A stretch of DNA of 52,629 nucleotides, from IMG/VR virus record IMGVR_UViG_3300009494_000004, positions 1 through 52,629 of that record; one strand, 5' to 3'. Under the pieces are notes generated by a model. That model had not been told where the DNA came from, did no database searches, and worked only from the letters and a program-made list of their open reading frames with translations. Origin of the DNA: a virus. A program made the translations under genes and the position numbers. How positions within the stretch are numbered: the stretch's first letter is position 1; each line of letters opens with the position of its first letter. This document shows, piece by piece, positions 16,125-52,629 of the stretch.

Positions 16125-16125
16125 G

Positions 16126-29355: not shown

Positions 29356-29777
29356 CCAGTGTCGCAATCGCAATTATCTTTGTTTTTGGCGTCGCGTTTA
29401 GCCTTGTCGTTCCAAGCGCAGCGGCAACAATATGTCGGACGACGGCATACAACGCAAAGTCCGTTGTTCATGCAAGGTGGTCGGTCCGCCAACGGTTTTT
29501 TACTACTTACATTATCAATAGAAGGCAAAGGCGGAATAACGCTGGGAATACGCGACTTCTTATTTCGCACGACTTGTTTGTCCCATTTGTTCAGCAACTC
29601 CGCGCTAATCGTAACCGCCCATTCGTCTTTTGCTACGTTAAAGACACCCAGCGACTTTACGGACTTCGCAAAATCAGCAAGAAACGATTTGCGGACCCGC
29701 TTTTTTGCCACAAACTCCCAAATAGTACCCGCAATAAAACCTATTACAACGCCGACAGCGAGTATAGTCAACATCAT
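29349..29777 (-). CDS. Membrane-anchored Cys-rich protein
   Basis: N-terminal transmembrane helix MMLTILAVGVVIGFIAGTIW and C-terminus PPCMNNGLCVVCRRPTYCCRCAW...NCDCDTGC. Start is ATGA-coupled. Confidence 0.55.
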   Translation of the reverse strand: MMLTILAVGVVIGFIAGTIWEFVAKKRVRKSFLADFAKSVKSLGVFNVAKDEWAVTISAELLNKWDKQVVRNKKSRIPSVIPPLPSIDNVSSKKPLADRPPCMNNGLCVVCRRPTYCCRCAWNDKAKRDAKNKDNCDCDTGC

Positions 29778-30307
29778 GACATCCCCCCGTCTTTACTGTC
29801 TTCGCCACCGCCGTCGCTGTCCTGATCGTCTTCGTCGCTGTTTGCTTCATTCAACAACTGCGCCTCTTCGACAAACGTATTACGCGAGCAATCGCAGTCC
29901 GCACCGCAACAAGCGTCGTATGTTGTTTTGCCTGATACAGTTTCACCAAACGATCGCAGTGATCCGCAATCGCTTTTTTTAATTTCATCATCCAAGGTCG
30001 GGTACGACGGTTTAATATCAATAACCGCAACAATATCGCATTCGCGCATAAGCAGCAGCGACTCGCCATTTATAGTAATTTCGCCGCCCGTGAAACGTCC
30101 GTATAGTACGGTGTCGCCTACCTTCACAATCATGTACTGAAGCTCGTTGCGCGGGGCGACACGCTTGCCGGGTCCACAGGTAACAACCATTCCCCGGCCC
30201 TTACCCTGCGGGTTAGGTAAAATGATTCCGTTGCCGGTCTCCGTTTCCGGCGCGTCCGGGCGAACGGCGATTCTGTCTTCAAGCAGTCGCGTAGTTTCGT
30301 TTTTCAT
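29774..30307 (-). CDS. GroES/Cpn10-like co-chaperonin with an ~80-aa Cys-rich, acidic C-terminal extension
   Basis: LEDRIAVRP...GIILP...GMVVTCGPGK...VKVGDTVLY...LLLMRECDIVAVI aligns along the whole of E. coli GroES. The ATG at 30307 has GGAGAGAG upstream. Confidence 0.75.
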   Translation of the reverse strand: MKNETTRLLEDRIAVRPDAPETETGNGIILPNPQGKGRGMVVTCGPGKRVAPRNELQYMIVKVGDTVLYGRFTGGEITINGESLLLMRECDIVAVIDIKPSYPTLDDEIKKSDCGSLRSFGETVSGKTTYDACCGADCDCSRNTFVEEAQLLNEANSDEDDQDSDGGGEDSKDGGMS

Positions 30308-30320
30308 TAATCTCTCTCCG

Positions 30321-30584
30321 TTAAAAGTTAAGCAACCTTGGTTGTTCGTCACGCTCCCAGGCGTCCACAAGGTGCTTCGTGACCGCTTTGCGCAACTGCG
30401 GACCGTTTAACCGGGTCAGCTTTTTGGCGGTCGCGCTTATATTAAGCTTCTGCGTCCAGTCCGCGTAGTTAATAATGCTTTGCCATACTGAGCCGGGGTA
30501 GTTGTCTGCCATTTGTCTAATCGAGGGCGCGTTCACTTTTTCTCCTTGCGTGCTGTCTAATACTATAACCCAGTTTTTGGTCAA
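30321..30584 (-). CDS. Hypothetical protein, first gene of the late operon
   Basis: 87-aa ORF with a TTG start preceded by AAGGAA at 5 nt. Confidence 0.5.
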   Translation of the reverse strand: MTKNWVIVLDSTQGEKVNAPSIRQMADNYPGSVWQSIINYADWTQKLNISATAKKLTRLNGPQLRKAVTKHLVDAWERDEQPRLLNF

Positions 30585-32443: not shown

Positions 32444-33222
32444 CAGATGCTATCCTTGTCTTCGTTGTCTTCGTTGTTTTCGTCATACAAATACGGATCA
32501 ACATGCGTTTCGTCAATTGACGCCAGTCTGTCCCGTATTGCCGTCTGCACGGCTTCAAGCAGATTGTTTAGCTCCGCGAGCGACAGCGCAGACAGGTTAA
32601 GGTTATGCAGGCCGCCAAGTTCCTCTCGCCAAACGAGAAGCATCTCGCCAACCGTCTCGGCGGTTATTTCCACGGCTTTTGGATTCGCGATAAGTACCCG
32701 ACCACCGGACGCGGACAGAGCGGCGCGGTCGGCATCAGCGGATACCTCTTTACGGACCTGTTCCATCAGCATACGAATCTGCGCGACATCGTCATGGATC
32801 GTCTGTACGGTAATGTACCCCTTGCTGCTTTCATGTACCGTATCTTCGCCGCCGCTCTTTTCGATACGTTCCATCACCGTGTCTATTAAATCCGATAACG
32901 CTTGCGCGCGGGCCTTCATTCCAGCCCAATGAACATCCTCAAGTGTGGCCGCCCAAATATCATGTGCTTCGACAAGCTCAGCCTTTGGTATGGCGGAGCA
33001 CCGTTTGAGAAACGTATTGCAGCCGTGCGCCTCTGGATCGAGACCGGAAAACCCGTTTGTTGTCCCGAATGTCGGATCGGTTAGCTCCCTGTAAAGTTCC
33101 GTCGGTTTAGCCCAAGTCGCCAGCGCGTTGACGATGTAATGTCGCACTTTTGCAGGCCAACGCGGCGTCTGTATCCGTGCGTTCTTTTTTGGTCGTCCGC
33201 GTTTCCGTTTTTTGTCAATCAT
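32443..33222 (-). CDS. AT-hook / DUF2280-like DNA-binding protein (possible small terminase; low confidence)
   Basis: KRKRGRPKK AT-hook, then VRHYIVNALATWAKPTELYRELTDPTFG, which resembles the N-terminus of DUF2280-type putative small terminases. Acidic C-terminus. Confidence 0.35.
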   Translation of the reverse strand: MIDKKRKRGRPKKNARIQTPRWPAKVRHYIVNALATWAKPTELYRELTDPTFGTTNGFSGLDPEAHGCNTFLKRCSAIPKAELVEAHDIWAATLEDVHWAGMKARAQALSDLIDTVMERIEKSGGEDTVHESSKGYITVQTIHDDVAQIRMLMEQVRKEVSADADRAALSASGGRVLIANPKAVEITAETVGEMLLVWREELGGLHNLNLSALSLAELNNLLEAVQTAIRDRLASIDETHVDPYLYDENNEDNEDKDSI

Positions 33223-35257
33223 CTGCTTCCGTTTCTTCTGTAAACTGTTTCGGGTCTACACTTAACGGCGCACGCCATACTGTTTTCGTACCGAATGCAC
33301 CCTCTGACTTTCCTATAGTTATACCGAGATTTTCCTGTGCAATCAGCCGTATCCGACGCCAAACAGCACTTTGCGCTTTGCCTCCGTAGACGTTCTTAAT
33401 TCTTGTATTCATGTCGACGGACGCGATCTCGTCTATGCCGTCAAACTGCGAAAGCAGCCAGTCTTCCGTCTTTTTATCGTGTCTATTTTTACCGTTATCG
33501 TCATCGCTGTCCTTTAAGTCAATCTCCCGATAGCCGTCCGTCTCGTTCACATATTGCAGAATTTTATCATTCGACGGCCCTACAAACCTACCAAGGAACG
33601 AAAGTGCCCTTGTGTTTGGGCTACGCTTACCGCCGCCGGACGGACGAAGGTGCGCTATCACGTCAACAGCGGCCTCGATACCGACCGAACCCGCCGACGC
33701 GCCGGACTTGTTCTCGTGATGTATCCACACGACGGCAGCGTCCGCGGCAAGCGCCGCGCTACGCAGTCGCGCGGTCTCCGCCTGCCAAAGCGCGGTTTCG
33801 TGCGACTCAGGAACTTCATGGCTTTCCGAAAAAAGCGGAAAGAGCGTATGGATCGAGTCAAGCACAACTATATCCGGCGCGATTTCCACTATGATGTCAT
33901 ACAGCCCTTTCCACGTTTCCGGCATGATGCCCGGAATCTCGCCGTGCAAAATGCGAACGCGCGCAGCGTCGATATCCGATACGTTTGCCTCTTTGAACCT
34001 GCGGACAACGTCGCCAAGCGGTTCGTCGTTCGACACCCAAAGAACCGTTCCTCCGTTATCAAGAACAGCAAGCGACTCGTACGTGCACAGCGTGGACTTG
34101 CCGGACCTTTTTGCAGACCCGACAAGCAGCGTTATCCGCTGCCTCCAGCTCACCCACCTGCCGACTGTTTTTGGCCGCTCGGTGAGTTGCGGATCGGTCA
34201 TCAGCTCGGCGAGGCTCGGCGGCGGTTTGCGGCCTTTCTTCTCGCCATCATCATCGTCGACGTCGTCCGTATCTCGGAGACCGTTTTTTTTGATATCTAC
34301 GCGCGCTTTTTCCCTCGCCTTCTTTACGGCGTCGTCACTTTCGCCGAAGTCGTAACCCTCGCCCGCGTATGCGCTCCGCACAATCCGTTCCAAGTCATCA
34401 AGTGTAAGTGGTGGATTATTTAATCCATTCCATTCAGACAGAAGCCGTCCGGTCTCGCCGATGTCAATACCGCACTTGCGGCACTCGCTCGCCAGCACAA
34501 TCGCACGGTTGTCCCGACCACCATCTCTGCTTTCTTTGACGCCCTTCGCGAGCAACAAGTTCAACGACTTGCGGTACAGCTCTCTACGGTACTTCGACAG
34601 ACGTGAATCGAGTTCCGGCCAGGTACCTTCATTTTCGTCAACAGGGGGGGAAGTCTCCTCTGCGAACGTTTCGTCCGGCAGCACGAAATAGCCGCCGTTC
34701 GTGCCAACCCGAAAATACTCATCAAAATTTTCATGCGCCCAAGACTTCGTTCTCTTATTATCGTCAAGATAGTATTTCGCGCACGGAAACGCTGGTTGGG
34801 ATATTGTTAGCATCTTTGAATCGCTATCGGGAAACCGCCCAATTAGCCATTTACGCACGATGGCGAATTTTGCTGGGTCGTCAATAGACGGAGACAACGG
34901 AAGCAGCACACGAAACCTCGGTTTATCCGCCGTATGTCGTGCGGTTGGTGCTATAACGTAAATATATTCGGCGAACTCTTTTTCCAGTCCGTCAACAGTT
35001 TTTCCCTCGTCGTAATCAAGTGCAATTGCAGCCATAGACTTTGCATTCGCACGGCTGCGAACACCATCCTTGAATTCCCATACTGTATAGCCACGAGTTT
35101 TCAATACAAGCGCAAGGGACTTGCATCCTTCATCTGTTGATAGATTAAATGTCGTTTCGACATCCATCATACCGCCTGGTTTTCGACGATAGCCAGCTTC
35201 TTCTTTTGACTGAACAGATTCACGGGCGACAAATAATGTTAATTTCATTGATTTCAT
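33215..35257 (-). CDS. Primase-polymerase / RecA-fold (AAA_25, RepA/DnaB-like) replicative helicase fusion
   Basis: Walker A GSAKRSGKST, Walker B-like IVVLDSIH and VWIHHENK. The central RDNRAIVLASECRKCG resembles a PriCT domain. Confidence 0.7.
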   Translation of the reverse strand: MKSMKLTLFVARESVQSKEEAGYRRKPGGMMDVETTFNLSTDEGCKSLALVLKTRGYTVWEFKDGVRSRANAKSMAAIALDYDEGKTVDGLEKEFAEYIYVIAPTARHTADKPRFRVLLPLSPSIDDPAKFAIVRKWLIGRFPDSDSKMLTISQPAFPCAKYYLDDNKRTKSWAHENFDEYFRVGTNGGYFVLPDETFAEETSPPVDENEGTWPELDSRLSKYRRELYRKSLNLLLAKGVKESRDGGRDNRAIVLASECRKCGIDIGETGRLLSEWNGLNNPPLTLDDLERIVRSAYAGEGYDFGESDDAVKKAREKARVDIKKNGLRDTDDVDDDDGEKKGRKPPPSLAELMTDPQLTERPKTVGRWVSWRQRITLLVGSAKRSGKSTLCTYESLAVLDNGGTVLWVSNDEPLGDVVRRFKEANVSDIDAARVRILHGEIPGIMPETWKGLYDIIVEIAPDIVVLDSIHTLFPLFSESHEVPESHETALWQAETARLRSAALAADAAVVWIHHENKSGASAGSVGIEAAVDVIAHLRPSGGGKRSPNTRALSFLGRFVGPSNDKILQYVNETDGYREIDLKDSDDDNGKNRHDKKTEDWLLSQFDGIDEIASVDMNTRIKNVYGGKAQSAVWRRIRLIAQENLGITIGKSEGAFGTKTVWRAPLSVDPKQFTEETEADD

Positions 35258-35510: not shown

Positions 35511-35809
35511 TGTCGTCTCCGTTTAATACGCCGCAACCCCGGCCACAATTTTACAAACGTGTAGTAAAGCAAAAGCGCCAGCCAAACCGCGTTTGCCACA
35601 ACAACGGCTACGCCGCCAATAAATGACAACCACTGTCCGAGATGCGGATAGTAAAACAGGTTCCAGCCGCCCCACGCGGTAAAGAACGCTACCGCAATCC
35701 AACTGACACCCTTAACCTGCCTGTCGATAAGCAATCGACGCACGTTCAGCATAACAAACAACGCGCCGCACGCCTCAAGTATTCCATTGATCGTATCAGG
35801 CCACGTCAT
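35507..35809 (-). CDS. 3-TM membrane protein with a SemiSWEET/PQ-loop-like layout (tentative)
   Basis: 100 aa with three hydrophobic helices. The pattern LN-VRRLL..R.VKGVS, W..NLFYY and VANAV parallels the PQ-..VLKTRS...IS, LW..YG and SNAV of bacterial SemiSWEETs as I recall them. Confidence 0.35.
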   Translation of the reverse strand: MTWPDTINGILEACGALFVMLNVRRLLIDRQVKGVSWIAVAFFTAWGGWNLFYYPHLGQWLSFIGGVAVVVANAVWLALLLYYTFVKLWPGLRRIKRRRH

Positions 35810-36669
35810 TTCGTTTGACTCTCCATCCGTATTCCGAATCCGAGTAGAAGCGCGACAAGTGTATCCTTAATAGTATTGTCTGGTTCGGAAAGGAACCGCG
35901 TCCCAGCGACAGCTTGTACATAGTTCCTTATTACCGATTCAGTTTCATCAATGAGATCCGCCGCCGCGCGCCTGACGAGATGCTCGTCCGCGGCGGCGAT
36001 ACATAAATCCCTCACGTCAGCACGCGGAATGGTAGCCTTTCGCAGTTTTTGCGCGGATTTAACAATCTCCGGATCAAGCGTCAATTCGACAAATCTGTCA
36101 TAAAATAGGTCGGCGGCTTCGTTATAGTCAAGTTTACGGAACGTAAATTCGTCTATAGCACCGTCATACGACATCGCCATGTTGAACTTCAGGTCATCTG
36201 ATGGATTTGCAGACATCAAATGCTTATATTCCGTGACATTCATTATCTGATCTGCCTTTGTAACATAAGGACTTCTTTTAATTGGCAGACCGAATGCCTC
36301 GGCGACAACCGGCTCCCATATCCGTTCCAGCGCTTTATAGGAATTGAGCAACGATTTTAACGGACGCGATACGTCGCCAAGGTACGCTTCCGCCGCGTCG
36401 TGCATAAGCGCTTCAAACTGCAACATCCTCTTCTGCTTGTCTGTCATAGCGGCCAACTCCTCCGGGGGGACCAGAGAAAGCACCAGGTTCGCGCACTCGA
36501 CGGAATGCTCGGCAACACTGTAAAAACCGTTCGTATAGCCGGTAAACCGGCACTGTGCACCCAGCGACTGCGCAATATCCCTTATGTCGATGATACCAAC
36601 ATGCGGCCTTAAAAGGTTAACGGATATCCCACTTCCCGTCGCAATAATCGGTTCGGTTGTTTGTTTCAT
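35806..36669 (-). CDS. HD-domain phosphohydrolase, YfbR-type 5'-deoxynucleotidase / dNTPase-like
   Basis: FYSVAEHS...LMHDAAEAYLGDVSRPLK reproduces the H...HD...D metal-ligand pattern of YfbR-like enzymes. The ATG at 36669 has AAGGAGAG upstream. Confidence 0.65.
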   Translation of the reverse strand: MKQTTEPIIATGSGISVNLLRPHVGIIDIRDIAQSLGAQCRFTGYTNGFYSVAEHSVECANLVLSLVPPEELAAMTDKQKRMLQFEALMHDAAEAYLGDVSRPLKSLLNSYKALERIWEPVVAEAFGLPIKRSPYVTKADQIMNVTEYKHLMSANPSDDLKFNMAMSYDGAIDEFTFRKLDYNEAADLFYDRFVELTLDPEIVKSAQKLRKATIPRADVRDLCIAAADEHLVRRAAADLIDETESVIRNYVQAVAGTRFLSEPDNTIKDTLVALLLGFGIRMESQTK

Positions 36670-36686
36670 GTTTCTCTCCTTAATAT

Positions 36687-37220
36687 TTACGGTATCCAAC
36701 CATGTTTTTTGTCGTATTTTTCCGCACCGCCACGTTTAAACGGAGCGTCCGCAGGGCGGTTATCAAACTCCGGTTTGATGTCTACGAAGTCGAGGAGGAA
36801 AAGCAGGCAGCAAATAGCGTGCGCGAGGTGGTGCAGTCCCGATTCCGGATCGTATTCTTCGCCACCGTACCAGGCCCAAATATGACGTAACGCCGCGCCA
36901 ACGTATCGAGACCATTTAAGGCCACACCGGTACGAATTTGCCTCATACTTTTTTGCACCGTACGTGAGGACAGCGACGACCTGCCGTAGTGGGCCGGGCA
37001 TTAGTAACTCGAACATCAGCTTTCCGTCGTCGTACTTCGGTGCCTCAAATTTAGATGTTGCCGTTTCCCCCGCCACTGTTGACGACATAACCCGTTTTAG
37101 TGGCGGTTGCCGTAAACTATTTTTAGGTTTGTCAAACAATGCTATAAGTTGCGCAACCGGACCGAGTTTGATTTTTCCAGGTTTGATTTTTTCAATTTTC
37201 TTTTTCTTCAACGGATTCAA
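36687..37220 (-). CDS. MazG-like all-alpha NTP pyrophosphohydrolase (DUF5664 / dATP-dGTP diphosphohydrolase-type domain)
   Basis: KYDDGKLMFELL...VLTYGAKKYE.NSY......SRYVGAALRHIWAWYGGEEYDPESGLHHLAHAICCLLFLLDF matches that phage domain. The start is uncertain (TTG at 37220 or 37211). Confidence 0.6.
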   Translation of the reverse strand: MNPLKKKKIEKIKPGKIKLGPVAQLIALFDKPKNSLRQPPLKRVMSSTVAGETATSKFEAPKYDDGKLMFELLMPGPLRQVVAVLTYGAKKYEANSYRCGLKWSRYVGAALRHIWAWYGGEEYDPESGLHHLAHAICCLLFLLDFVDIKPEFDNRPADAPFKRGGAEKYDKKHGWIP

Positions 37221-39264
37221 CTCCTTTTTCTACGGACGTGCAGCTGCTCCACGAGTCGCCCGCCTCGATATCGACCGCAAAGGGGACAAACCCTTCGACA
37301 TCAATTTCCATAGCGTCGCGTATCATCGGCACAAGTCTGTCGCGATACTTTTTCGGTGTATGAAATAACAGTTCGTCGTGGACCGTTAATAGCATTTCGA
37401 CCGGGAACTTCGCAGGGACAATGATTCTATCATAACATCGTTTTATTGCGATCTTCATAATATCGGCGGCGGTGCCCTGCACTTCCTGGCTGATGGCGCG
37501 GCGTTCCCATTTCGCGCGCTCACCGGGAACGTCCGACCAGATTCCAGTCATCCCGCCGTCGTTTTCGTTGCCAGTCAACGGACGAATGCGACCAAAGTAA
37601 GTCTTCGCCCATCCACGCTGAAACGCAAGGCGCTTCCTACGACCAAGCCACGCAGTAAGTGCGGGCACAGTTTCGAACCATTTATCGATAAATTTCTGCG
37701 CTTTGCTTTCACTAATGTTGTATAGAAGAGCAAACGCATACGCGGTTTGTCCAAAAAGTGCTCCAAAATTTTGGCCTTTCGCTTTTTTATACTCTTCTTC
37801 AGTATAGTCCGCGCCGAACATTTTGATAGCGGTCGCAACGTGCGGCGATTCACCTTTCGCAAATGCATCAATCCATACTTTTTCTTTCGCAAAACTCGCC
37901 GGTATTCTAAGTTCAATCTGCGAATAATCTGCATCGACAAATGTCCAATCCTCATCCGATATAAACGTTGCACGGATATTAACTGGTACGTAGTCACCAG
38001 CGCACTTTGGAATGTTTTGTAAATTCGGTCCCGAACATGAAAATCTACCTGTTGCCGGACCGACTGACCAAAACGACGCGCGTAGTTTTCCGTCGTCATC
38101 CATTGCCTTTGGTATCTTCGATGTGAAACTGGATCGCAGCGTGCCAAGGCTTGATCCGTTCAATAACATTTCAACTACTGAATGCTTATTTTTCAATGAA
38201 TTGATAAACTTCTTTCCAGTAGCGCCGTAACCTGACGCCGTGTACGCTACCGGCTCCAATAACCGCCCGTCGACATCAATAAGTGCTGTTTTCTTATCGT
38301 GCGAAAGCGTTTTTTTGTTCCAGTTACCGAAAAGCAAAACGGATTTCTGCATCCAGCTTTTGAGGTTAATTTCCGTCGGTTTGCCGTACCGCTCCTCGGA
38401 CGCTATCTCATTCACCCGTCCGTTGATGACTTCGTACGCCTGCCCAAGCACCTTGTCCTGATCGGCAAGCAAGTCCAAGTTTATCCGTACGCCCGCCTGC
38501 TCCATATGGATGACTGGACGCACGACCTCATGCTCAAGGTTCCATGTTCCGCGCTGTTTTTCTTTCGTCTCAGCCAGTTCGGGAAGAAGCCATAATCTCC
38601 AGGTGAAATCAGCGTCCTGACAGCCGTAAATACGTTGCATCTTATTGTTAAGTTTGAGGAAGTCGCCGGGCATAAACTTTGACTTCGGGACACCGATTAT
38701 CTTGCTCATCGACAGCGTCGACCCGACGCCGGTGAGGTGCTTTTCGGCGAAACCTTTTAACCCTCCCGTCATTTTGTTATTCGGCCACGTAAGGTGGACG
38801 CCGATGAACACATCCTGGAAATCGTGGACTTCAACTCCGTGGTTCTCCAAAATGGGGATATCGTATTTCGCGTTTGCCATGACGAGCGTACTTTTCTTTG
38901 CCTTTACGGCGAGCGCCCTTAAACATGCCTTTGAGGGCATTGGAACCCAATAGGCCTGTGCGGGTTCGCAGCATACCGAAAAGCCGTACAGCTCCGTCTT
39001 GCCGGGCCGTATATCGAGACCGCTTGTTTCCGTATCTACCGCAAACTCGTTACCAAATCCGTTAAGTACCTTCCGTAATTCGGTAGCCGTTTTAATTTCA
39101 ACGTACCGGCAACCTTTATCCATTGCTTCGGCGTATTGAACCTGAAGCCCGGCTTCTTTCTCCAGCTTCAGTTGCGTCTTGGTTGGCGGCTTGATCTTTT
39201 TTTCTTTTTTCCTTTTAATTTCAGGCACTGTACGCCTCCAATGCGGCTTCCGCAGCCTCGACAT
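37192..39264 (-). CDS. Family-A DNA polymerase with a 3'-5' exonuclease domain
   Basis: Exo I FAVDTETSGL, motif A DADYSQIELRI, motif B KGQNFGALFG and motif C TVHDELLFH. Confidence 0.85.
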   Translation of the reverse strand: MSRLRKPHWRRTVPEIKRKKEKKIKPPTKTQLKLEKEAGLQVQYAEAMDKGCRYVEIKTATELRKVLNGFGNEFAVDTETSGLDIRPGKTELYGFSVCCEPAQAYWVPMPSKACLRALAVKAKKSTLVMANAKYDIPILENHGVEVHDFQDVFIGVHLTWPNNKMTGGLKGFAEKHLTGVGSTLSMSKIIGVPKSKFMPGDFLKLNNKMQRIYGCQDADFTWRLWLLPELAETKEKQRGTWNLEHEVVRPVIHMEQAGVRINLDLLADQDKVLGQAYEVINGRVNEIASEERYGKPTEINLKSWMQKSVLLFGNWNKKTLSHDKKTALIDVDGRLLEPVAYTASGYGATGKKFINSLKNKHSVVEMLLNGSSLGTLRSSFTSKIPKAMDDDGKLRASFWSVGPATGRFSCSGPNLQNIPKCAGDYVPVNIRATFISDEDWTFVDADYSQIELRIPASFAKEKVWIDAFAKGESPHVATAIKMFGADYTEEEYKKAKGQNFGALFGQTAYAFALLYNISESKAQKFIDKWFETVPALTAWLGRRKRLAFQRGWAKTYFGRIRPLTGNENDGGMTGIWSDVPGERAKWERRAISQEVQGTAADIMKIAIKRCYDRIIVPAKFPVEMLLTVHDELLFHTPKKYRDRLVPMIRDAMEIDVEGFVPFAVDIEAGDSWSSCTSVEKGVESVEEKEN

Positions 39265-39988
39265 CGCGCTCGTATAGATGCAGATTAAGCGCGATATTCG
39301 TGAACCGTCCGCAGGGTCGGCTAAGCTCGTCGGCCATCGCCATCTGGAGTCCGTGCATCGTGAACACGTCGTTGCGAAGACCTGTATTTACATCCTGCGA
39401 GCGGAATACAACTGTCGCACATAAACCGCCATTCCTTATCGTAAACTGAAGGCAGATACAGCACGGAAAATCTTTCGTCGGAACCGCCTTGTGCTTGACC
39501 TGATTTACGTTCAACACGACCTGCCTGCTGTCCGAGTCTTTTCGTAGCTTGTCAACCGCCCATATCCATTGGTTTATATCTGTAACGTAGTAGCCCGTGT
39601 CGCCCTCGTGCTTCGACGGCACCGTCATATCGAATCGCTGACTGAATAAATACTGTCCGTACGCACTATTGACACGTATACCGTCGTCGGAAAATTGCTC
39701 CCAAAGCTTTGTAAAACTTTTTCTCGTCACCGGATGTACAAGGTCGGCAATTCTGTCAGATCCGCTCAAGTACCAAGCAAGTTCGGCCTCAGCGTACGGC
39801 ACCCTCGTGTGAAACGGCTTTAACGTTGACACAAAATGCTTGTCCTGATAACCGTTTATATAATCAAGCGTAAGAATGTAATTGTTTACCTCACGCACGG
39901 CCAAACTACGCGGCGCGGACTTCTGCCCAGCCAATGTCGCCCTAATGGCATCATAATACTCTTTATTGAAATCTGTAAATAGCGACAT
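39221..39988 (-). CDS. Thymidylate-synthase-fold enzyme with the dCMP-hydroxymethylase-type active-site signature (deoxycytidylate C5-modifying enzyme)
   Basis: It aligns with E. coli ThyA across ELAWYLSG, NSAYGQ, DSDSRQVV, FPCCICLQF and FRSQDVNTGLRND. The residue 31 positions after the nucleophilic Cys is Asp (RND, as in T4 gp42 D179), not the Asn of dUMP-specific enzymes. The ATG at 39988 has AGGAGAG upstream. Confidence 0.65.
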   Translation of the reverse strand: MSLFTDFNKEYYDAIRATLAGQKSAPRSLAVREVNNYILTLDYINGYQDKHFVSTLKPFHTRVPYAEAELAWYLSGSDRIADLVHPVTRKSFTKLWEQFSDDGIRVNSAYGQYLFSQRFDMTVPSKHEGDTGYYVTDINQWIWAVDKLRKDSDSRQVVLNVNQVKHKAVPTKDFPCCICLQFTIRNGGLCATVVFRSQDVNTGLRNDVFTMHGLQMAMADELSRPCGRFTNIALNLHLYERDVEAAEAALEAYSA

Positions 39989-40454
39989 CGACTCTCTCCT
40001 GTATCTTTTCAGTTTCCCAGTTAAGCAAACCCCCGTTCCATTTCTGTTCGAATCTGCAATCCTCAAACTTATTTAACGGTACGGAACTACGCCCGGCGTT
40101 TTTTGCGACTTTCGCAGCGGCCCGCCACCTGTCAACGGGAACAGCATACGCGCACTTGTTGCGCGGACCTTTGTAATGCACGATAATGAGAAATCCCACA
40201 CCGCCCGCGCGCTCAATATCTTCCAGTTCGTCAAGCTGACTTTCACGAACTCCACGTAACGGCTGAGAAATACCGTGTTTTACAATTTTGAATTCAAACC
40301 CGACCGCTATTCCGTCCCAACAGGCAATAACGTCAACAGCGCGTGTCCCCGTATCAAGTCCATACCGGGGATCTGCGATCTTATGACACCAAAGCTCCGA
40401 CTTGACACGTCGCCAGCTTTTCGTTATTTGGTTTGTTATCTCGGTTTCTCTCAC
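39963..40454 (-). CDS. PD-(D/E)xK nuclease, Holliday-junction-resolvase-like
   Basis: VDVIACWDG..VGFEFK gives a D...E.K catalytic motif. GTG start with GGAGA upstream. Confidence 0.5.
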   Translation of the reverse strand: MRETEITNQITKSWRRVKSELWCHKIADPRYGLDTGTRAVDVIACWDGIAVGFEFKIVKHGISQPLRGVRESQLDELEDIERAGGVGFLIIVHYKGPRNKCAYAVPVDRWRAAAKVAKNAGRSSVPLNKFEDCRFEQKWNGGLLNWETEKIQERVDVAIYRFQ

Positions 40455-40814: not shown

Positions 40815-41107
40815 ATCTTAACCCTCATTACTTTGACTTTTTTCTGGACGTACGACAGCGCCTCTACGGTATTCCGTATTGTGTAGAAACCCGTACGCCA
40901 CGCGATTACGATAGGCTTACCGTACCGGGTGCGGTCCGACGCTGCCCATGCGTCAAAATGGTCTTTGAATTTTTTCGTCGTTTCGTCTTCAGTGGGGGCA
41001 TTGACCATAACCGCATTCAACTGCGCAACCATCATCCTCTTAAACGAGGTAAGGTCCATAAAATCCCCAAGCGAAAATCTGTATTTTGTTTTTTGTTTCT
41101 TACTCAT
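40811..41107 (-). CDS. Hypothetical protein
   Basis: The ATG at 41107 overlaps the upstream stop (ATGAGTAA). The track start is 41137. Confidence 0.45.
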   Translation of the reverse strand: MSKKQKTKYRFSLGDFMDLTSFKRMMVAQLNAVMVNAPTEDETTKKFKDHFDAWAASDRTRYGKPIVIAWRTGFYTIRNTVEALSYVQKKVKVMRVKI

Positions 41108-42098
41108 TGTTTTGTGTCCACATTCCGTAGCCTGCATGGTTCGGACTGATTATCCTCGGCAACGTGCCGGATTCCTGTATGGCCCGCATAACCTGCCAAT
41201 ACTCTATGACGCGCTGCTCCAGCGTATGGTAGCGTAGCACATTCTGCTGTCCGCACGCCGCCATCTCCTCGCGAATATCATCATGCTCTAAGTAGAAATC
41301 TATTTTACGCACCAGGTCGTCAAACGTGTCATCGTGCGTAACACAATGCGTGCCCTTCTCCCACATATAGTCGAAATTCTGCACCTTGTGGTTGATAAAC
41401 GCCACGCCGGAACCCATCGCGTTATACGTACGATTACTGACGACAAACGGACCGGGATTCAGAAATAGGCTGCGCTGTATATTGAACGCCACTTTGCTTT
41501 GAGCATAGGCCTCGGCCATATTCCATTCACGAATCTCGCCGGGTCGCCCTATTTTGTCGAGGACGAATTTGCATTTGTACCGACGGCTAAGTTCATTAAG
41601 CCATTTTCTTCTAATCTTATCGGTCGATCCTATGAAGCACAAGTCGTAGATTTCCTTCGACAAATCAAGCCGCGTCGGCAGCGCGCCGTCTTTCATGCAG
41701 GAACGGTGATCGAAGTATTGAGGCATCCACAGCACGGTCGGCGCGAGGTCGCAGTACCGGCGAGCCGTCTCAAGTATGGAGAACACGAGCACGTCGGCCC
41801 GGTTCGCAAGCTGACGACGCCACATCCTGTCGCGCGTCCGCTCCGTCATGTCGGGATACCAGAACAGAAGCTTCGCACCGCTTTTTCGTATTTGGCGGTA
41901 GTAGCGCCGGAAGTCCGGACGTAGCGCAAAGCAGAACACCCAATCGGGCTTATACGACTCAAGCACGGGTAGCATCTCCTCTGGATGCGCGCGCGACCCG
42001 GTCAACATAACGTCGAATCCCTGACGTTTCGCTTCCTTGTACAAATACGGACCGGCGAACCGCTTCTGAAATCCGCACGCCCAAACGAGAACCTTCAT
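41100..42098 (-). CDS. Glycosyltransferase, CgeB/GT1-like (GT-B fold)
   Basis: [10 protein letters not shown]..., LCFIGS..., VAFNIQR....[16 protein letters not shown] resemble the DUF3880/Glyco_trans_1_2 (CgeB) family. ATGA-coupled start at 42098. Confidence 0.55.
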
Positions 42099-42343
42099 AC
42101 GGATACTCCATGACATTTTTTGTACTTAAGACCGGAATCGCACGGACACGAATCGTTCCTGCCAATCTTATAATAGGGACGCCGATAGGTTCCACGTACG
42201 GATGAATCCCAGAACGTCATACACTTACGCCCGTATTTGTCCCTCTTGTCCGGTTTCCGCTTTTTGGGTTGCGCGGTTACGCTTTCACGCTTACGCAGAA
42301 AACTAAATAGCCACGCAATTATTTTCGCAAAAATCTTCATCAT
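42095..42343 (-). CDS. Small protein with an N-terminal hydrophobic helix and a C-terminal SEC-C zinc motif
   Basis: [17 protein letters not shown] is a SEC-C motif. ATGATGA coupling to the upstream gene. Confidence 0.55.
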
Positions 42344-43179
42344 AGACTGTCCTTTAGCATGCGTTTCGCCTCGTTGACTATGACCGACGAATCCGGCAAC
42401 CACATTTTCTTTTGTCTCCAGTGCGCATCGCCTGGACTTTGCATTGTCTTGACGCGCGTATTAAACGGATTCCAATGACTTTGAACCCGTAGACTGTGGT
42501 CGCGGCACGTTTGCCAACACAACTGTGGAAGCCCGCACAGTGTCGCCAGGTGTGCTGGTCCCGACTGCGGACTAATGATGAGTTTCGACGACGCCATTAA
42601 ATCCGTTAATGCGGTAAGGTTAATATCTCGGCAATCCGTGCCCCCTACGTGCAAAGACGACTCAGATTTTCCAATACATACGACGCTGTATCCGGCGCGC
42701 ATAAGCGATTCTGAAACTATCTTTGCATGCTTTTTCGGCCAATTCCTAAATCCGGTGCTGCATTTGTCGGTATCGCGAACATGGAGCAAAACATCCGGTA
42801 CAAGGCAACCGTCGACCTTTTTGCCCAACCGAATAAGCGACTGCCGCGTAGACCAATACTGTGAATCCCACCACCGCTGCGGATACGCATCCGGTTTTAT
42901 CCATTCCGCGTTTGGCGCAAAATCCTCAATGTAAAAGCGAAAATTCGTGATTTTCTGTCTATCGACAGATCGGTCGTAACACATATCAGTTTGGTTGTCG
43001 CCTTCGCCGAAATGTAATATGTCGTCGGCAAAGTCCGTATATAGTGCATCGTGTCCAGCCCGACACGCGACGACGACTCGGTCGTACTTCGGCGCAATTT
43101 TCCTGAGAAACCCCTGCCAACAAAACAGTTCCCAACCGAGCTCGCCTATGAATGGTCCGGCAAAAAGTGTCTTCATCAT
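42340..43179 (-). CDS. Glycosyltransferase, GT9 (heptosyltransferase)-like GT-B fold
   Basis: N-terminal [12 protein letters not shown] and C-terminal [19 protein letters not shown] resemble GT9 enzymes. AAGGAAA Shine-Dalgarno. Confidence 0.5.
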
Positions 43180-46654: not shown

Positions 46655-47926
46655 CTATACTTCCTCACGTAGCCATTCAAGACGAGAAAAATCTTGTATA
46701 ATCATGTTATCGTTGTCATAAATAACGCGAGATATTTTCGCATCAAAGGGACACGCAGCCCGTGTAAGCGCCGCCGCGACGGCCCGGATAAGATCCTCTG
46801 ACGTGTTTACTGGAACGTTCTGCGTAACGTGCGCGGGTTTCGCACCTTTGTCGTAACTGAGTTTGAAATCGTCCGGCAGACCCATAAAATCCATACACTC
46901 CCGCACGGACATAAATCTCGACTTGGTCGGATGCTTCCACCACCTCATCCCGTGGATCATCAGGGTTGGCGTGAGATCGCGCACAAGCACCGGAGTCTCC
47001 CGGCGAAAACCAAGACCCTGGTCCGTCTTTGCCTTGACCTTAATTACGATGTCGTTCCACTGTTTCGCGTTCGCCCGGTACTCGTCACCGCCCCTGACAC
47101 GCGGACGGACCGACTCGGCGGCAAGCCACGCAATCAGCTCCGAAAGTAAACCCTGCTTGACGGCTAACGAAATAACGTAACTTTTGGCGTTTGGCTCTCC
47201 CCCAATACTAACATTTTTCGAATCTATCCAGCCCTTGCGACGCGCATAACGAATCAAGGAGTCATTGGCGTAATTACTATTAAGAAACTCCTCGTCGTGC
47301 GGTCGCGTACCGAATACTTTACCGCATCTTTCGAGAAACTCCGAAACTGCCAACGGCCTTCCCCTTGTCTCCAGGGCGATAATCCTGGGCGTACCCTTCC
47401 ACAAAAGGCCGTACGTACGCCTTCGCTTCTGCGGTATCCCGTGGTTCGCCGTATTGACCTTTACCATAGTGAGTGAGTAGCCCAGGCTTTTTGCAAGCTC
47501 GGCAACACGCTTCGCCATCGGACGCCCCTTGTCCGTCGCCAGCAGGGGCGCGTTTTCAAATACGTGTACACCCGGACTGAAAGCCGTTATGGCGTAGCGA
47601 ATTGTCCGCGTAATCCAGTCGTTCGTTGGACAGTCGCAGCCTTTCGTTGGTGAATTATTCCCCATCGACAGACCGCCACACGGCGGAACGGAATGCGTGA
47701 TATCTATACGAGAGAATTTATCCGTGTTCGTTACGAAATACGGAACCTTTGGCCAGTAGCTCCTGAGACTTGACGAGTGCGCGCCGCCGAATACATTTCC
47801 GGCCCCGTCAAGCATATCAACAATGACCTCCGGCAGTCGGCCGATTGCGCGCGCCGCGCCAATGGCGAGTCCACCCGTGAGCGGCATGATGGCTGCATGC
47901 GTTAAATTTGTTTTCCGTCTCAGCAT
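46655..47926 (-). CDS. Divergent DNA cytosine-C5 methyltransferase-fold protein
   Basis: Motif IV-like PPCGGLS (canonical PCQ), motif VI FENAPLL (ENV), motif VIII QKRRRTYGL, and C-terminal RECMDFMGLPDDF and QNVPV (canonical GNAVP). Confidence 0.6.
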   Translation of the reverse strand: MLRRKTNLTHAAIMPLTGGLAIGAARAIGRLPEVIVDMLDGAGNVFGGAHSSSLRSYWPKVPYFVTNTDKFSRIDITHSVPPCGGLSMGNNSPTKGCDCPTNDWITRTIRYAITAFSPGVHVFENAPLLATDKGRPMAKRVAELAKSLGYSLTMVKVNTANHGIPQKRRRTYGLLWKGTPRIIALETRGRPLAVSEFLERCGKVFGTRPHDEEFLNSNYANDSLIRYARRKGWIDSKNVSIGGEPNAKSYVISLAVKQGLLSELIAWLAAESVRPRVRGGDEYRANAKQWNDIVIKVKAKTDQGLGFRRETPVLVRDLTPTLMIHGMRWWKHPTKSRFMSVRECMDFMGLPDDFKLSYDKGAKPAHVTQNVPVNTSEDLIRAVAAALTRAACPFDAKISRVIYDNDNMIIQDFSRLEWLREEV

Positions 47927-49000: not shown

Positions 49001-50305
49001 CTATCTTCCCATAAGCTTATTCAAATAACGGTCCACGTTTACCTGAAGCCGCGCAAGCGGGCCGCGCGTGGCGTTCCAAACGAACGCCATCGTCCCGCGC
49101 TTCTGCCAATTAAAGGACTTCAGCCGATGCCATTCGTTCGGCGCAGTTATTCCCGGCAGATACTCGACAGACACGCCTTGCTCTTCCATTGTGGACGGCT
49201 TGCTGGAGCCTTTACGGTGCTGGTCACCGAGGTGCCATTCGCGGTATCCGTTCTTCGTCCGCGCCCACGCCTCCGGCATTTCGTTCGCCATAAGCGCCGC
49301 GAGCCGTATTGGCGCGACGCTGTGCCCGTGCTCGTACCCTATGAGATTGCATCCGTATTCATGAAATTTGTACGGCGACGACGTTGCGTCCACCGTCACC
49401 TCCGGGTCGTTCTTGTAGTACGCCTGAAGCACACGGCCAAGCATGAACGACGTCGTCCGGTCGTGGTTTCCAGGAATGAAATAAAGACGAACCGGCGCAA
49501 TCTCGCGCACTCTGTCGACAATCTGTATAGCGAGCGCTTCGCCGGTCACGAACGTGTTGTAGTATGCGTCCGCCTCCGGCTGCCCGGTGTGCTGCGTAGT
49601 TTCCTGCCATATCGTGTCGGAGTGGAAGAAATCGTTTCCCATTGGCATCACAATTTCTTCAAATGGCCCGAACGAAGCGGCGAGGCTGATTATTTCCTCC
49701 AACGACTCCATGACCATCTGCGCACAAAACTCCGGCGACCATTCAGCGTCGGACGCGGGCTTGAACGTTCGCATCCCATAGTGCGGATCCATAAGCGCGA
49801 TCTCGAGCGCGTTACGTTCATTCTTCTGCCCTAACTTCAGCCGTCTGATTTTCGGTTTCGGCGACTTACTCTCCAGTTGCATAAGCAGCTTACCGACGGC
49901 GTCCTCGACGACCTCCGGCACGGCGCGCTCAAACACTACTTTAAGTCGAACATTCTGAACTGTAAACGGCTTGTCCTTTTTTTCCGGTTCGCGAATCTTC
50001 ATCGTCACGTCGTAACTGGAATGCTCAAAACTTTTAACGCGCCACACCGCCATATCGACATTCAGTTCACATATAATATCGTCAATAGTTGCGAACCTGC
50101 ATCCGTCGGCTTCGACAACCCACTGACCACTTTTCTTTTGCTGCTTAAAGACGTTTTTCTGAATTTCGGTTTTGTCGTCCAAACGGTCAAACCTCCTCTT
50201 ATAAACATTTTCAGATATACCGAGGCTCCGCGACGCGGCGGCTTTATTACCAAATTTTACGTACGCTTCACGTATTTGTTTGTCGGTAGCTTTTAGTTTT
50301 GCCAT
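49001..50305 (-). CDS. Calcineurin-like metallophosphoesterase with an N-terminal HTH-like region
   Basis: LMDPHYG (DxH), MGNDFFHSD, IPGNHDR (GNHD/E) and GYEHGH. N-terminal AASRSLGISENVYKRRFDRL. Confidence 0.6.
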   Translation of the reverse strand: MAKLKATDKQIREAYVKFGNKAAASRSLGISENVYKRRFDRLDDKTEIQKNVFKQQKKSGQWVVEADGCRFATIDDIICELNVDMAVWRVKSFEHSSYDVTMKIREPEKKDKPFTVQNVRLKVVFERAVPEVVEDAVGKLLMQLESKSPKPKIRRLKLGQKNERNALEIALMDPHYGMRTFKPASDAEWSPEFCAQMVMESLEEIISLAASFGPFEEIVMPMGNDFFHSDTIWQETTQHTGQPEADAYYNTFVTGEALAIQIVDRVREIAPVRLYFIPGNHDRTTSFMLGRVLQAYYKNDPEVTVDATSSPYKFHEYGCNLIGYEHGHSVAPIRLAALMANEMPEAWARTKNGYREWHLGDQHRKGSSKPSTMEEQGVSVEYLPGITAPNEWHRLKSFNWQKRGTMAFVWNATRGPLARLQVNVDRYLNKLMGR

Positions 50306-50652
50306 TAGCGTTTCCTAATTCCAAATGTTTTGTTGAATTGTTTTTTCATCCTAATAAGTTTTGATGAACTCTGCGCGGATATGAACCGTCCGCGAAGAAA
50401 TACATTTAACTTCCGTGCGATAGTAACAGGATTCAAAGTTTCATATTTCCAAATAACGCAAACGCGCCAACCCGTGTTTTCTAATTTTTCAACTGTATTA
50501 TTACGTATACGCAAAAAACAGCTATACATAAATATAACTGCTTTCCATTTTCGCAATACGATATTTGGTTTACCCGGTAGTCCACAGCCACCAAGACGGA
50601 AACGAAAACCCATGCGATGAAGAAGTGAACGGACAATAACTTCTGACTTCAT
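50305..50652 (-). CDS. Degenerate Vsr/DUF559-like protein (catalytic and zinc residues missing)
   Basis: E.IVRSLLHRMGFRFRL....LPGKPNIVL...KAVIF parallels Vsr E..L.SLL...G..FR....LPG.PDFV.....VIF, but the catalytic Asp is Asn and the GCFWH.H.C segment is replaced or shortened. The gene is AT-rich (~36% GC). Confidence 0.4.
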   Translation of the reverse strand: MKSEVIVRSLLHRMGFRFRLGGCGLPGKPNIVLRKWKAVIFMYSCFLRIRNNTVEKLENTGWRVCVIWKYETLNPVTIARKLNVFLRGRFISAQSSSKLIRMKKQFNKTFGIRKR

Positions 50653-50653
50653 A

Positions 50654-51322
50654 TTAACTTCTGACTTCGATGGCGTAGACGTCCACCTCGATATCACCAT
50701 GCAGGCCAATATGGTCAAAGAACCGCCTAATGACGCCTGTTACGGACTTCTTAAGTTTCGCGTTCCCATACACGGTCGTCATGGGCATTGTCCCCTGCAA
50801 CGTCATCCCTTGCAACGTTACGACGTATTTGGCGCTGATGCGCCGTCGTTCCTTGTAATCAATAGCGTTCGATTTACCGAATTTTTGGCAGGCAACCGCC
50901 GAATATTTCTCCTCTTTGTCGAGAACGGCCAAACGTCCAGCGTCCGTCACAGGCGCGACGTCCGTCACGGTCATCTTGCTACCAGCAGCGTCGACGGACG
51001 CGCGACATACGGCTGCGACGTATTTGTTGATCTGTAAAAACACGCTCTTCGATATCTGCGTAGGTCCGCCCCTTACCTCAATAACCGCCTCCCGAACGGC
51101 GGACTCGCGCACCAGCCCTGTCGGGACATTTGTGCTTTTGACCTTCAGGTGGAACTTCGTCACCCTCTTCTCGTTGCCGTCCGTCAAGCACATTGTTTCA
51201 ATCGTTTCGTAAAGATGTCGCCGCAGGGCGTCGAGGAACTTTGCCGATACGCGGACGTCGTTCGTTTTCCGCAGCACGCGCATGAAGGATTTCACGGGCC
51301 GTTCGAACAAAAGGTTCTTCAC
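50654..51322 (-). CDS. Hypothetical protein
   Basis: The GTG at 51322 overlaps the HNH gene's TGA (GTGA), with AGGA 5 nt upstream. The track start is the TTG at 51352. Confidence 0.45.
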   Translation of the reverse strand: MKNLLFERPVKSFMRVLRKTNDVRVSAKFLDALRRHLYETIETMCLTDGNEKRVTKFHLKVKSTNVPTGLVRESAVREAVIEVRGGPTQISKSVFLQINKYVAAVCRASVDAAGSKMTVTDVAPVTDAGRLAVLDKEEKYSAVACQKFGKSNAIDYKERRRISAKYVVTLQGMTLQGTMPMTTVYGNAKLKKSVTGVIRRFFDHIGLHGDIEVDVYAIEVRS

Positions 51323-52287: not shown

Positions 52288-52629
52288 AATTACTTTGCGC
52301 AATAGATGACTTGTATTTCAAGTACCAAATACACCACCGCCTGCCCGAATACCCTGCTGACCGACTGAAGACCCGTGAAGGTCGTCCCCTGGACCTCTAA
52401 GATCGTTCTTGCGCAGTAACGCCAAGAATAACCTTAAAGCGAGCAGGGAAGCCCGCTACAGCACGCTGGTTGCCGCTCCCCCTGAACACCCCGCTGACCG
52501 GCTGGAGGCCTTCAGCGACCGGGGCGTCGCCTCATACTTTTCTCACACGCGTGCCGGGCGGGTGTTTAACAGTTGAACATGTTTGCCCTCGTGTTTGCCT
52601 CATACTTTTCGCCCGATTTCGGTTAAAAG
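52288..52629. repeat. 342-bp unit X, terminal copy (identical to 1..342)
   Basis: See the feature at 1..342. Confidence 0.9.

Follow-up and report, generated by a model that had tools for sequence, protein, structure and literature searches.

A thymidylate synthase-like gene in the replication module of an uncultured tailed phage predicted to encode a deoxycytidylate 5-hydroxymethyltransferase

The thymidylate synthase (TS)-like gene of the IMG/VR virus record IMGVR_UViG_3300009494_000004 raises the question of which pyrimidine nucleotide its product modifies and which group it adds. The gene lies in the window, i.e. the whole stretch of 52,629 nucleotides analysed here (positions 1 to 52,629 of the record), as an open reading frame (ORF) of 255 amino acids at 39221-39988 on the minus strand. 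Both the source database and PHROGs (160/5131) label the protein as thymidylate synthase, yet it carries an aspartate at the position of Asn177 of Escherichia coli ThyA, which reads the O4 and N3 atoms of uracil. Based on the residue comparisons described below, we assign the gene, with a probability of ca. 0.78, to a folate-dependent deoxycytidylate 5-hydroxymethyltransferase, predicted to form 5-hydroxymethyl-deoxycytidylate (5hmdCMP) from deoxycytidylate (dCMP) within the replication module of a lytic tailed phage. The gene and the codons on which the argument depends are the following:

39221..39988, minus strand: TS-fold enzyme, predicted dCMP hydroxymethylase (5hmdCMP synthase), on the basis of PF00303, PHROG 160/5131, the AlphaFold model and signature residues identical to those of T4
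39461..39463, minus strand: codon of C176, the catalytic nucleophile (ThyA C146, T4 C148), invariant in all alignments
39368..39370, minus strand: codon of D207, the cytosine-specificity residue (ThyA N177, T4 D179), from the alignments
39470..39472, minus strand: codon of D173, the hydroxymethylase marker three residues before the Cys (ThyA L143, T4 D145), from the alignments
39392..39394, minus strand: codon of D199 (ThyA D169), Asp kept, from the alignments, with N186 of RB69 gp48 in the same column
39398..39400, minus strand: codon of S197, a deoxyribose marker (ThyA S167, T4 S169; Ala in MilA), from the alignments
39524-39526, minus strand: codon of R155, the second deoxyribose marker (ThyA R126; Lys in MilA), from the alignments
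39665..39667, minus strand: codon of S108 (T4 Ser94, ThyA Val93), the partner of the Asp145 equivalent in the water network of T4 deoxycytidylate hydroxymethylase (dCH), from the alignments

The reading frame starts with an ATG preceded by AGGAGAGAG; an alternative TTG start, extending the frame up to 40066, is possible and has no ribosome-binding site. Within the protein, the segment FPCCICLQF contains the nucleophile C176 and the segment FRSQDVNTGLRND contains D207. The first-pass annotation of this DNA had counted an Asp 31 residues after the nucleophile and had argued that the enzyme modifies dCMP rather than forming thymidylate. The count is correct (176 + 31 = 207), and D207 falls onto ThyA N177 and T4 D179, together with C176 onto ThyA C146 and T4 C148, in every alignment made (HMMER pairwise alignments against PDB sequences, MAFFT with n=36 and n=9, and L-INS-i with n=48 and n=7), the ThyA and T4 gp42 references being identical, residue by residue, to the PDB chains 1aob and 1b49. 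An insertion or deletion that would shift an Asn onto position 177 is absent, as no gap separates the Cys from the D207 position in the window protein, ThyA or T4 gp42; among the references, only SPO1 gp29 has a one-residue insertion there. The local likeness to T4 claimed at the same time amounts to 8 identical residues out of 13 (MRSNDVVFGFRND versus FRSQDVNTGLRND). The position of D207 without an indel thus supports a predicted dCMP-modifying enzyme in preference to a thymidylate synthase. The underlying Asn-to-Asp rule has an experimental basis in the ThyA N177D and N229D and the T4 D179N mutants, according to the passages citing them in PMC8670742, PMC6400193 and PMC13326640; the exchange N177D makes the enzyme specific for cytosine instead of uracil (Hardy & Nalivaika, Liu & Santi, Graves et al., as cited in the relevant part of PMC8670742).

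The protein matches the Pfam family PF00303 with E = 5e-20 (72 bits versus a cut-off of 24.3), and its AlphaFold (AF2) model, built with 46 homologues, reached a mean predicted local distance difference test score (pLDDT) of 94.2. In a Foldseek search against the PDB the cytidylate (CMP) hydroxymethylase MilA ranked first (E 1e-19, TMq 0.80), followed by many ThyA structures and, at rank 33, T4 dCH, the E values for the three enzymes ranging from 1e-19 to 1e-14. The Pfam match and a model with MilA, ThyA and T4 dCH as best structural matches confirm that the protein has the TS fold. Moreover, the catalytic and nucleotide-binding set is complete, as E69, W96, Y110, R155, C176, R196, S197, D199, H237 and Y239 align with their ThyA and T4 equivalents, and C176, E69, Y110, R155, R196, H237 and Y239 are invariant or nearly so in the family alignment. 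The NCBIfam equivalog models for thymidylate synthase, in contrast, all scored far under their cut-offs, the best with 57.7 versus 174.6 bits.

A TS fold is compatible with several products, and one experimentally characterised enzyme per known product class was therefore read at the ThyA positions 143, 146, 167, 169 and 177:

Window protein: D173-C176-S197-D199-D207, matching T4 gp42 only
E. coli ThyA, product thymidylate (dTMP): L-C-S-D-N
T4 gp42, product 5hmdCMP: D-C-S-D-D
MilA, product 5-hydroxymethyl-CMP (5hmCMP): D-C-A-D-D
Xp12 TS homologue, product 5-methyl-dCMP (5mdCMP; bioRxiv 10.1101/2024.12.05.627091): N-C-S-D-D
RB69 gp48, product 5-hydroxy-dCMP (5hodCMP; PMC13326640): E-C-S-N-D
SPO1 gp29, product 5-hydroxymethyl-deoxyuridylate (5hmdUMP): D-C-S-D-N

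Every feature of dCMP hydroxymethylases that can be read from a sequence is present, namely Asp at position 177, the equivalents of Asp143 and Ser94, the lacking tail and the deoxyribose markers. The Asp three residues before the Cys and T4 Ser94 hold the substrate water and are both signature residues of dCH (PMC6400193), a role of the 143-position Asp in T4 dCH being also described in PMC13326640; T4 gp42 carrying D145N or D179N forms no 5hm-dCMP (PMC6400193). S108 occupies the T4 Ser94 position in the alignments, and N107 and S108 are nearly invariant in the family. After the H-x-Y motif, only 16 residues follow in the window protein compared with 28 in T4 gp42, 55 in ThyA and 61 in the Xp12 methylase; the protein is thus devoid of the TS tail, whose loss constitutes a structural hallmark of dCH (PMC6400193).

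The first class to be weighed comprises enzymes acting on uracil nucleotides, either a normal thymidylate synthase or a deoxyuridylate (dUMP) hydroxymethylase of the SPO1 gp29 type. Such a function would agree with the database and PHROG labels and with the top tblastn matches in cultured phages, which include the dUMP hydroxymethylases of the SPO1, SP-10 and CP-51 type at ~27-30% identity. However, D207 replaces the Asn which both SPO1 gp29 and ThyA use for reading uracil, and an Asp is found at this position in all 150 nearest cluster representatives (see below). For ThyA itself, D173 in place of Leu143, the missing tail and the NCBIfam scores speak against it as well, so that we consider a uracil-directed activity highly improbable.

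A ribonucleotide enzyme hydroxymethylating CMP, like MilA or BcmA, would have its place in an RNA-related pathway or in the synthesis of a nucleoside-type small molecule, and not in that of DNA. MilA was the top match by sequence (2e-15 in the PDB sequence search) as well as by structure, with ~34% identity over the aligned core. The residues specifying its CMP preference, A176 and K133, are however replaced by S197 and R155, as in T4 dCH and ThyA; Ser167 and Arg126, in place of Ala and Lys, distinguish users of deoxyribonucleotides from those of ribonucleotides (PMC5175136). As the gene is also embedded in a phage DNA replication operon, and no MilB-like N-glycosidase was found, a CMP hydroxymethylase appears to be the most remote of the assignments considered.

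Flavin- and O2-dependent synthases of 5-hydroxy-dCMP have been described in RB69 (gp48) and DLP3 (gp80); an enzyme of this kind would provide 5-hydroxycytosine as acceptor for the glycosyltransferases of the phage. The window protein shares with RB69 gp48 the TS fold, Asp at 177 and an acidic residue at 143, and glycosyltransferase genes are located nearby, in line with the paradigm of PMC13326640. These synthases are marked by the exchange D169N (PMC13326640); their signature is absent here because D199 is kept, and Asp is found at this position in all 46 relatives. RB69 gp48 has N186 in that column and, in addition, F226 replacing the tyrosine of the H-x-Y motif. We therefore regard a 5-hydroxy-dCMP synthase as a very unlikely alternative.

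Asp177 by itself does not address one alternative, namely that the protein methylates dCMP (5mdCMP synthase) in the manner of the TS homologues of Xp12 and PaMx74. Such a dCMP methyltransferase would carry the TS reaction on dCMP through to its reductive end and yield phage DNA with 5-methylcytosine (5mC). Asp at 177 is common to the Xp12 enzyme, which was shown to make 5-methyldeoxycytidine (5mdC; bioRxiv 10.1101/2024.12.05.627091), the ThyA mutants N177D and N229D are dCMP methylases (as cited in the relevant part of PMC8670742), and genes related to 5mC, a C5 methylase and a Vsr-like nuclease, are present in the window. Only Asp177 is shared, however. D173 is acidic at a position where Xp12 has Asn and ThyA Leu, and hydroxymethylation is lost in T4 D145N; the C-terminal tail, which seals the TS site for hydride transfer, is missing (16 versus 61 residues in Xp12); the conserved S108 fits the T4 dCH signature; and the Xp12 TS gene adjoins genes for dihydrofolate reductase (DHFR) and a dCMP-deaminase-like protein, neither of which turned up in the family scans of the window ORFs. 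On this balance, a methylase is improbable. The first-pass annotation had left the choice between hydroxymethylase and dCMP methylase; its assignment of a dCMP-modifying enzyme holds, and D173, S108, D199, S197, R155, the absent tail and the lack of a detectable DHFR gene narrow the choice to the hydroxymethylase.

The signature is a property of the whole family. A search of 5.8 billion protein clusters yielded 46 relatives, all metagenomic, in which D173, D199 and S197 are each conserved in 46/46 and D207 is Asp in 45/46. An HMMER search of 1.84 billion representatives gave 5 matches at E <= 1e-30 and 1012 at E <= 1e-10; among the window protein and the best 150 of the 50%-identity cluster representatives (n=151), the pattern D-C-S-D-D occurs in 150 sequences and D-C-A-D-D in one, Asp being present at both 143 and 177 in all 150 nearest representatives. 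D207 is hence not a chance substitution, since it is Asp in 45 of 46 relatives and in 151 of 151 sequences of this set. Judged from these sequences, the predicted hydroxymethylases form a big family, for the most part uncharacterised, of which the protein is typical; within it, a small, tight "RND" clade sits inside a large cloud of Asp/Asp enzymes. No near-identical DNA was found in cultured phages, and a motif scan of GTDB genomes and IMG/VR with the family alignment confirmed no close relatives. NCBI lists one 56%-identical member (P0011), located on a contig of 2.5 kb, under the name 'MAG: thymidylate synthase [Nitrosopumilus sp.]'; it is probably viral DNA binned into an archaeal metagenome-assembled genome (MAG), and the product name is misleading.

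By homology with T4 gp42 we infer substrate, product and every downstream step, which would proceed as follows. In a TS-type dimer, the phosphate of dCMP would be gripped by R27, R196 and R155′ of the partner subunit and the 3′-OH by H237 and Y239, while S197 and R155 would exclude a 2′-OH and thereby select a deoxynucleotide. D207 is expected to form hydrogen bonds with, and to protonate, cytosine N3/N4, thus choosing dCMP over dUMP and activating the ring. The C176 thiolate would then attack C6, and C5 in turn the iminium form of 5,10-methylene-tetrahydrofolate (THF), with E69 aiding the ring opening; Y110 would aid the removal of the C5 proton, and the departure of THF would leave an exocyclic methylene intermediate. 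As no TS tail seals the active site and D173 and S108 presumably hold a water molecule, water instead of hydride would add to the methylene group, giving 5-hydroxymethyl-dCMP and unoxidised THF. Since THF would be left unoxidised, no DHFR would be needed. The product would be phosphorylated by a host kinase, presumed because no phage kinase was recognised, and incorporated by the co-transcribed family A DNA polymerase, while the adjacent MazG-like pyrophosphohydrolase and a co-varying HD hydrolase might deplete deoxycytidine triphosphate (dCTP) or supply dCMP.

The genomic setting of the gene is that of a phage replication region. The window corresponds to an entire JGI contig. Its bases 1-342 are repeated exactly at 52288-52629, which indicates an essentially complete phage genome of ~52,287 bp, either assembled as a circle or with terminal redundancy. 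Nearly all genes are on the minus strand, and a gpA-type terminase, a portal protein, a protease-capsid fusion, a tail tube protein, a holin and an M15 peptidase are encoded. The features relevant for the predicted pathway are:

2646-3338: GT2 glycosyltransferase beside the lysis genes, from family scans
33215-35257: primase-helicase, from family scans
35806..36699, minus strand: HD-domain phosphohydrolase, dNMP (deoxynucleoside monophosphate) phosphatase-like, PHROG 318 at 4e-55 with weak YfbR-like/HD_3 matches
36687..37220, minus strand: MazG-like nucleoside triphosphate (NTP) pyrophosphohydrolase domain protein, a putative dCTPase, PF18909 at 5e-33, PHROG 801
37192..39264, minus strand: family A DNA polymerase (PolA), directly downstream of the TS-like gene with a 44-nt overlap
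39963..40454, minus strand: RecU-like Holliday-junction resolvase, directly upstream of the TS-like gene, PF03838 at 3e-9, position kept in relatives
41100..42116, minus strand: Glyco_trans_1_2-type (GT1_2) glycosyltransferase, PF13524 at 7e-21, 65 homologues
42340..43179, minus strand: GT9-like glycosyltransferase (weak match), PF01075 at 8e-5, orthologues in all relatives
46655..47926, minus strand: C5-cytosine DNA methyltransferase homologue, PF00145 at 5e-17, motifs PPCGG, ENA, QKRRR and QNVP, orthologue in L012
47920..48993, minus strand: 357-aa protein, candidate downstream modifier, overlapping the start of the C5 methylase gene
50305..50718, minus strand: Vsr-like (very-short-patch repair) endonuclease domain protein, PF03852 at 6e-11, PHROG 13076

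Because the TS-like gene overlaps both neighbours, the RecU-like, TS-like and PolA genes are probably co-translated. Two small ORFs without assignment lie between the RecU-like and the GT1_2 genes, and a gene for a SEC-C motif protein between the GT1_2 and GT9-like genes; upstream of the latter follow genes for an endonuclease VII-like protein, the C5 DNA methylase, the 357-aa protein, an exonuclease, the Vsr-like nuclease and an HNH nuclease. The motifs of the C5 methyltransferase are plausible for catalysis, the catalytic motif PPCGG being unusual. The 357-aa protein has no match in Pfam, PHROGs, NCBIfam or the PDB and only 5 homologues in the 5.8 billion clusters. Comparisons of its structure and profile, also with the T4 beta-glucosyltransferase (BGT) family, yielded no assignment, as the AF2 model was poor with a pLDDT of 46, the Foldseek matches, although mostly GT-B enzymes including T4 beta-glucosyltransferase, were non-significant, and hhalign against a T4-BGT-family protein gave E = 0.16. 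PDB sequence searches returned no matches for the GT1_2 and the MazG-like proteins, and no homologues of PurZ, nucleoside deoxyribosyltransferase, dUTPase_2 or the T4 glucosyltransferases were found in the window. Elsewhere in the genome, two S-adenosylmethionine (SAM)-dependent methyltransferase-like genes, of the FkbM type (PF05050; 24906-25688) and the Methyltransf_23 type (27538-28131), flank the terminase gene, and the product of 29774-30370 has a co-chaperonin domain of the Cpn10 (GroES-like) type and an acidic extension at its C-terminus.

Several observations weigh against the assignment as a 5hmdCMP synthase. The closest characterised enzymes are only 22-34% identical to the protein, the best overall match in sequence and fold is the ribonucleotide enzyme MilA and not T4 gp42, and the marker at position 143 is partly correlative. 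Of the two companions, dCTPase and dNMP kinase, the MazG-like and HD hydrolase genes adjoin, but a P-loop dNMP kinase was not found in the window by strict and relaxed motif searches or by phmmer searches of the six-frame ORFs with the kinases of L005, L006 and RB69; nor was one found in the related phage L004, whereas T4, RB69, L005 and L006 have one. The gap represents a real weakness because, in E. coli, no more than trace incorporation was obtained with RB69 gp48 by itself (PMC13326640). Furthermore, all three glycosyltransferases (GT2, GT1_2 and GT9-like) are present in relatives without a TS gene (L009, L010 and L011) and, as backbone genes, cannot be assumed to act on 5-hydroxymethylcytosine (hmC); we have accordingly downgraded them as candidates for hmC glycosyltransferases.

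The C5 DNA methyltransferase and the Vsr-like nuclease would also have no purpose in DNA whose cytosines all carry a C5 substituent already; their presence implies that some unsubstituted cytosine exists in DNA the phage cares about. Finally, CTAG is entirely absent from the genome, compared with ~54 sites expected from a maximal-order Markov model and ~200 from base composition, and further sites are depleted (observed/expected: GCCGGC 0/23.6, GGCGCC 1/16, CCGCGG 3/22, CCCGGG 0/10, CTGCAG 0/8, AGATCT 0/6 and AGTACT 0/6). Such strong restriction-site avoidance would not be anticipated in a fully protected genome. The avoided sites vary among the relatives, CTAG being depleted in L010 and L012 and GATC in L013 (4 observed versus 36 expected). 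A link between CTAG avoidance and the TS gene was rejected, as the TS-lacking L010 is depleted and the TS-bearing L013, which avoids GATC, is not. The pattern looks like host-specific restriction-site avoidance existing alongside a predicted base-modification pathway. The kinase gap, the C5 methylase and Vsr genes and the site avoidance suggest that cytosine replacement may be partial or its protection incomplete; they have no bearing on the specificity of the enzyme itself.

The related loci provide a view on how the predicted modification genes are organised. Three TS-bearing relatives share the backbone of the window, L004, L012 and L013 (TS 54%, 84% and 57% identical, respectively), and the order GT1_2, RecU, TS, PolA, MazG-like and HD is common to all four; the PolA orthologues in the three relatives carry DNA_pol_A_exo1 and DNA_pol_A. 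In two more distant loci the TS gene occurs in other company. That of L005 (47% identical) is flanked by thymidylate-kinase-like and dUTPase_2-like genes, with a T4-type glucosyltransferase (PF09198) and a CofD/NTP-transferase fusion nearby, a neighbourhood which corresponds to the classical T4 gene set; L006 (40% identical) contains dUTPase_2, a kinase-like gene, PolB, dCMP deaminase and a nucleoside diphosphate (NDP)-sugar epimerase. Both contexts support a pre-replicative hmC pathway in the TS family. As a separate observation, the segment 16732-19353 of L004 contains genes for a sigma70_r2 protein, a C5 DNA methylase and a protein of 318 aa. The last of these lacks a P-loop and resembles the 5-hydroxymethyldeoxyuridine (5-hmdU) DNA kinase in its helical domain alone (PF18723, HMUDK_hel), which hints at a further modification step on a hydroxymethylpyrimidine in that phage; no homologue of this protein was found in the window.

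Many of the 65 GT1_2 homologues reside on 45-59-kb contigs which are not among the TS matches. The three inspected, L009, L010 and L011, share with the window the GT2, GT9-like, GT1_2 and MazG-like genes, L009 and L010 also the RecU-like and PolA genes and L009 the primase gene. All three are devoid of the TS gene, and the HD gene is absent or only marginal in them. The MazG-like gene (PF18909) is kept beside PolA in all relatives including those lacking TS, HD hydrolase homologues are found in all four TS-bearing loci (window, L004, L012 and L013), and the 357-aa protein occurs in L012 and L013 and not in L009-L011, i.e. among the relatives only in TS-bearing ones. At the equivalent place, L009 (JGI 3300041077 Ga0452210_002514, 14088-16489) encodes an Adenylsucc_synt protein (PurZ-like, with the P-loop GGQLGSEGKG) and a nucleoside-deoxyribosyltransferase-like protein, a pair suggestive of 2-aminoadenine in its genome.

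The TS and HD hydrolase genes co-vary, joined in the window, L012 and L013 by that of the 357-aa protein, and give the impression of an exchangeable cassette for modification adjacent to PolA. That such modification genes are exchanged against a PurZ-type module on a shared backbone (GT2, GT9-like, GT1_2, RecU-like, PolA, PF18909 MazG-like and primase), bringing along new accessory enzymes, is a rather doubtful extension of this picture. If it were correct, the specificity of the shared MazG-like enzyme would have shifted to dCTP from dGTP/dATP, the substrates of MazZ, and the HD and 357-aa proteins would be new components of the hmC pathway, acting for instance in the clearance of dCTP, in place of a kinase or as a transferase of groups onto hmC. 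The replacement of cytosine might then be partial and coexist with site-specific 5mC set by the C5 methylase and guarded by Vsr.

Should the assignment as a 5hmdCMP synthase be correct, cytosine would be exchanged, in part or entirely, for 5-hydroxymethylcytosine or one of its derivatives in the DNA of an uncultured phage of ~52 kb, with consequences for sequencing, restriction, CRISPR targeting and methods reading 5mC or 5hmC. To our knowledge, no modified base has been reported for this type of phage. A divergent predicted enzyme from a PolA-type phage in which the usual dNMP kinase was not found could moreover serve as a reagent or for testing the generality of the T4 signature residues. 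The exchanges by which it is recognised, Asp for Asn177 and Asp for Leu143, are textbook knowledge. The Asp177 criterion has already been applied in large-scale mining (PMC8670742; bioRxiv 10.1101/2024.12.05.627091; bioRxiv 10.1101/2023.12.21.572611; PMC13326640), over years and to thousands of phage and metagenomic TS homologues and viral contigs, and the surprise initially attached to the Asp was overrated. The chemistry is known, as is the recognition rule, and with a textbook principle already exploited in this way no new question is opened.

In comparison with the known systems, the dUMP hydroxymethylases of the SPO1 gp29 type resemble the window protein in the TS fold, the Asp at 143 and the hydroxymethylase type of reaction, but differ by Asn at 177, by one residue inserted ahead of this position and by a long, unrelated extension at the C-terminus. 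RB69 gp48 and DLP3 gp80 (NAR 2026, PMC13326640) share the TS fold, an acidic residue at 143, Asp177, a short C-terminus and a phage with glycosyltransferases; they are distinguished by D169N and flavin binding, whereas Asp199 is kept here. The Xp12 TS homologue (5mdCMP synthase; MT664984 45326-46195) has the TS fold, Asp at 177 and dCMP as substrate in common with the predicted enzyme, and deviates by Asn at 143, a TS tail of ~60 residues and the flanking DHFR and dCMP-deaminase-like genes. MilA, the CMP 5-hydroxymethylase of mildiomycin biosynthesis (PDB 5b6d, 5jnh), agrees in Asp at 143 and 177 and in its hydroxymethylating chemistry; its Ala176 and Lys133, which confer CMP preference, and its origin from Streptomyces secondary metabolism contrast with Ser and Arg in a phage replication operon.

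T4 gp42 (PDB 1b49, 6a9a) finally corresponds in the TS fold, in the short C-terminus without TS tail and in the local motif RS-DV--G-RND, its residues S94, D145, C148, S169, D171, D179, R123, H216 and Y218 being equivalent to S108, D173, C176, S197, D199, D207, R155, H237 and Y239; the likeness extends to the family member L005 with its T4-like neighbours (kinase, dCTPase-like gene and T4-type glucosyltransferase). Differences are found in the low identity of ~23% and the rank of 33 among the Foldseek PDB matches, in a beta-hairpin insertion of ~20 residues after Y110 and in a Gln for the second Arg of the RR pair; the phage, moreover, is a ~52-kb PolA-type phage rather than a T4-like myovirus, and neither a gp1-type dNMP kinase nor a recognisable alpha- or beta-glucosyltransferase was found in the window. 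The protein is divergent, with 23% identity to T4 gp42, 34% to MilA over the core and at most 34% to any characterised dCMP hydroxymethylase. By its signature residues it nevertheless appears as an ordinary, though distant, member of the well-known family which phages use to replace cytosine in their DNA.

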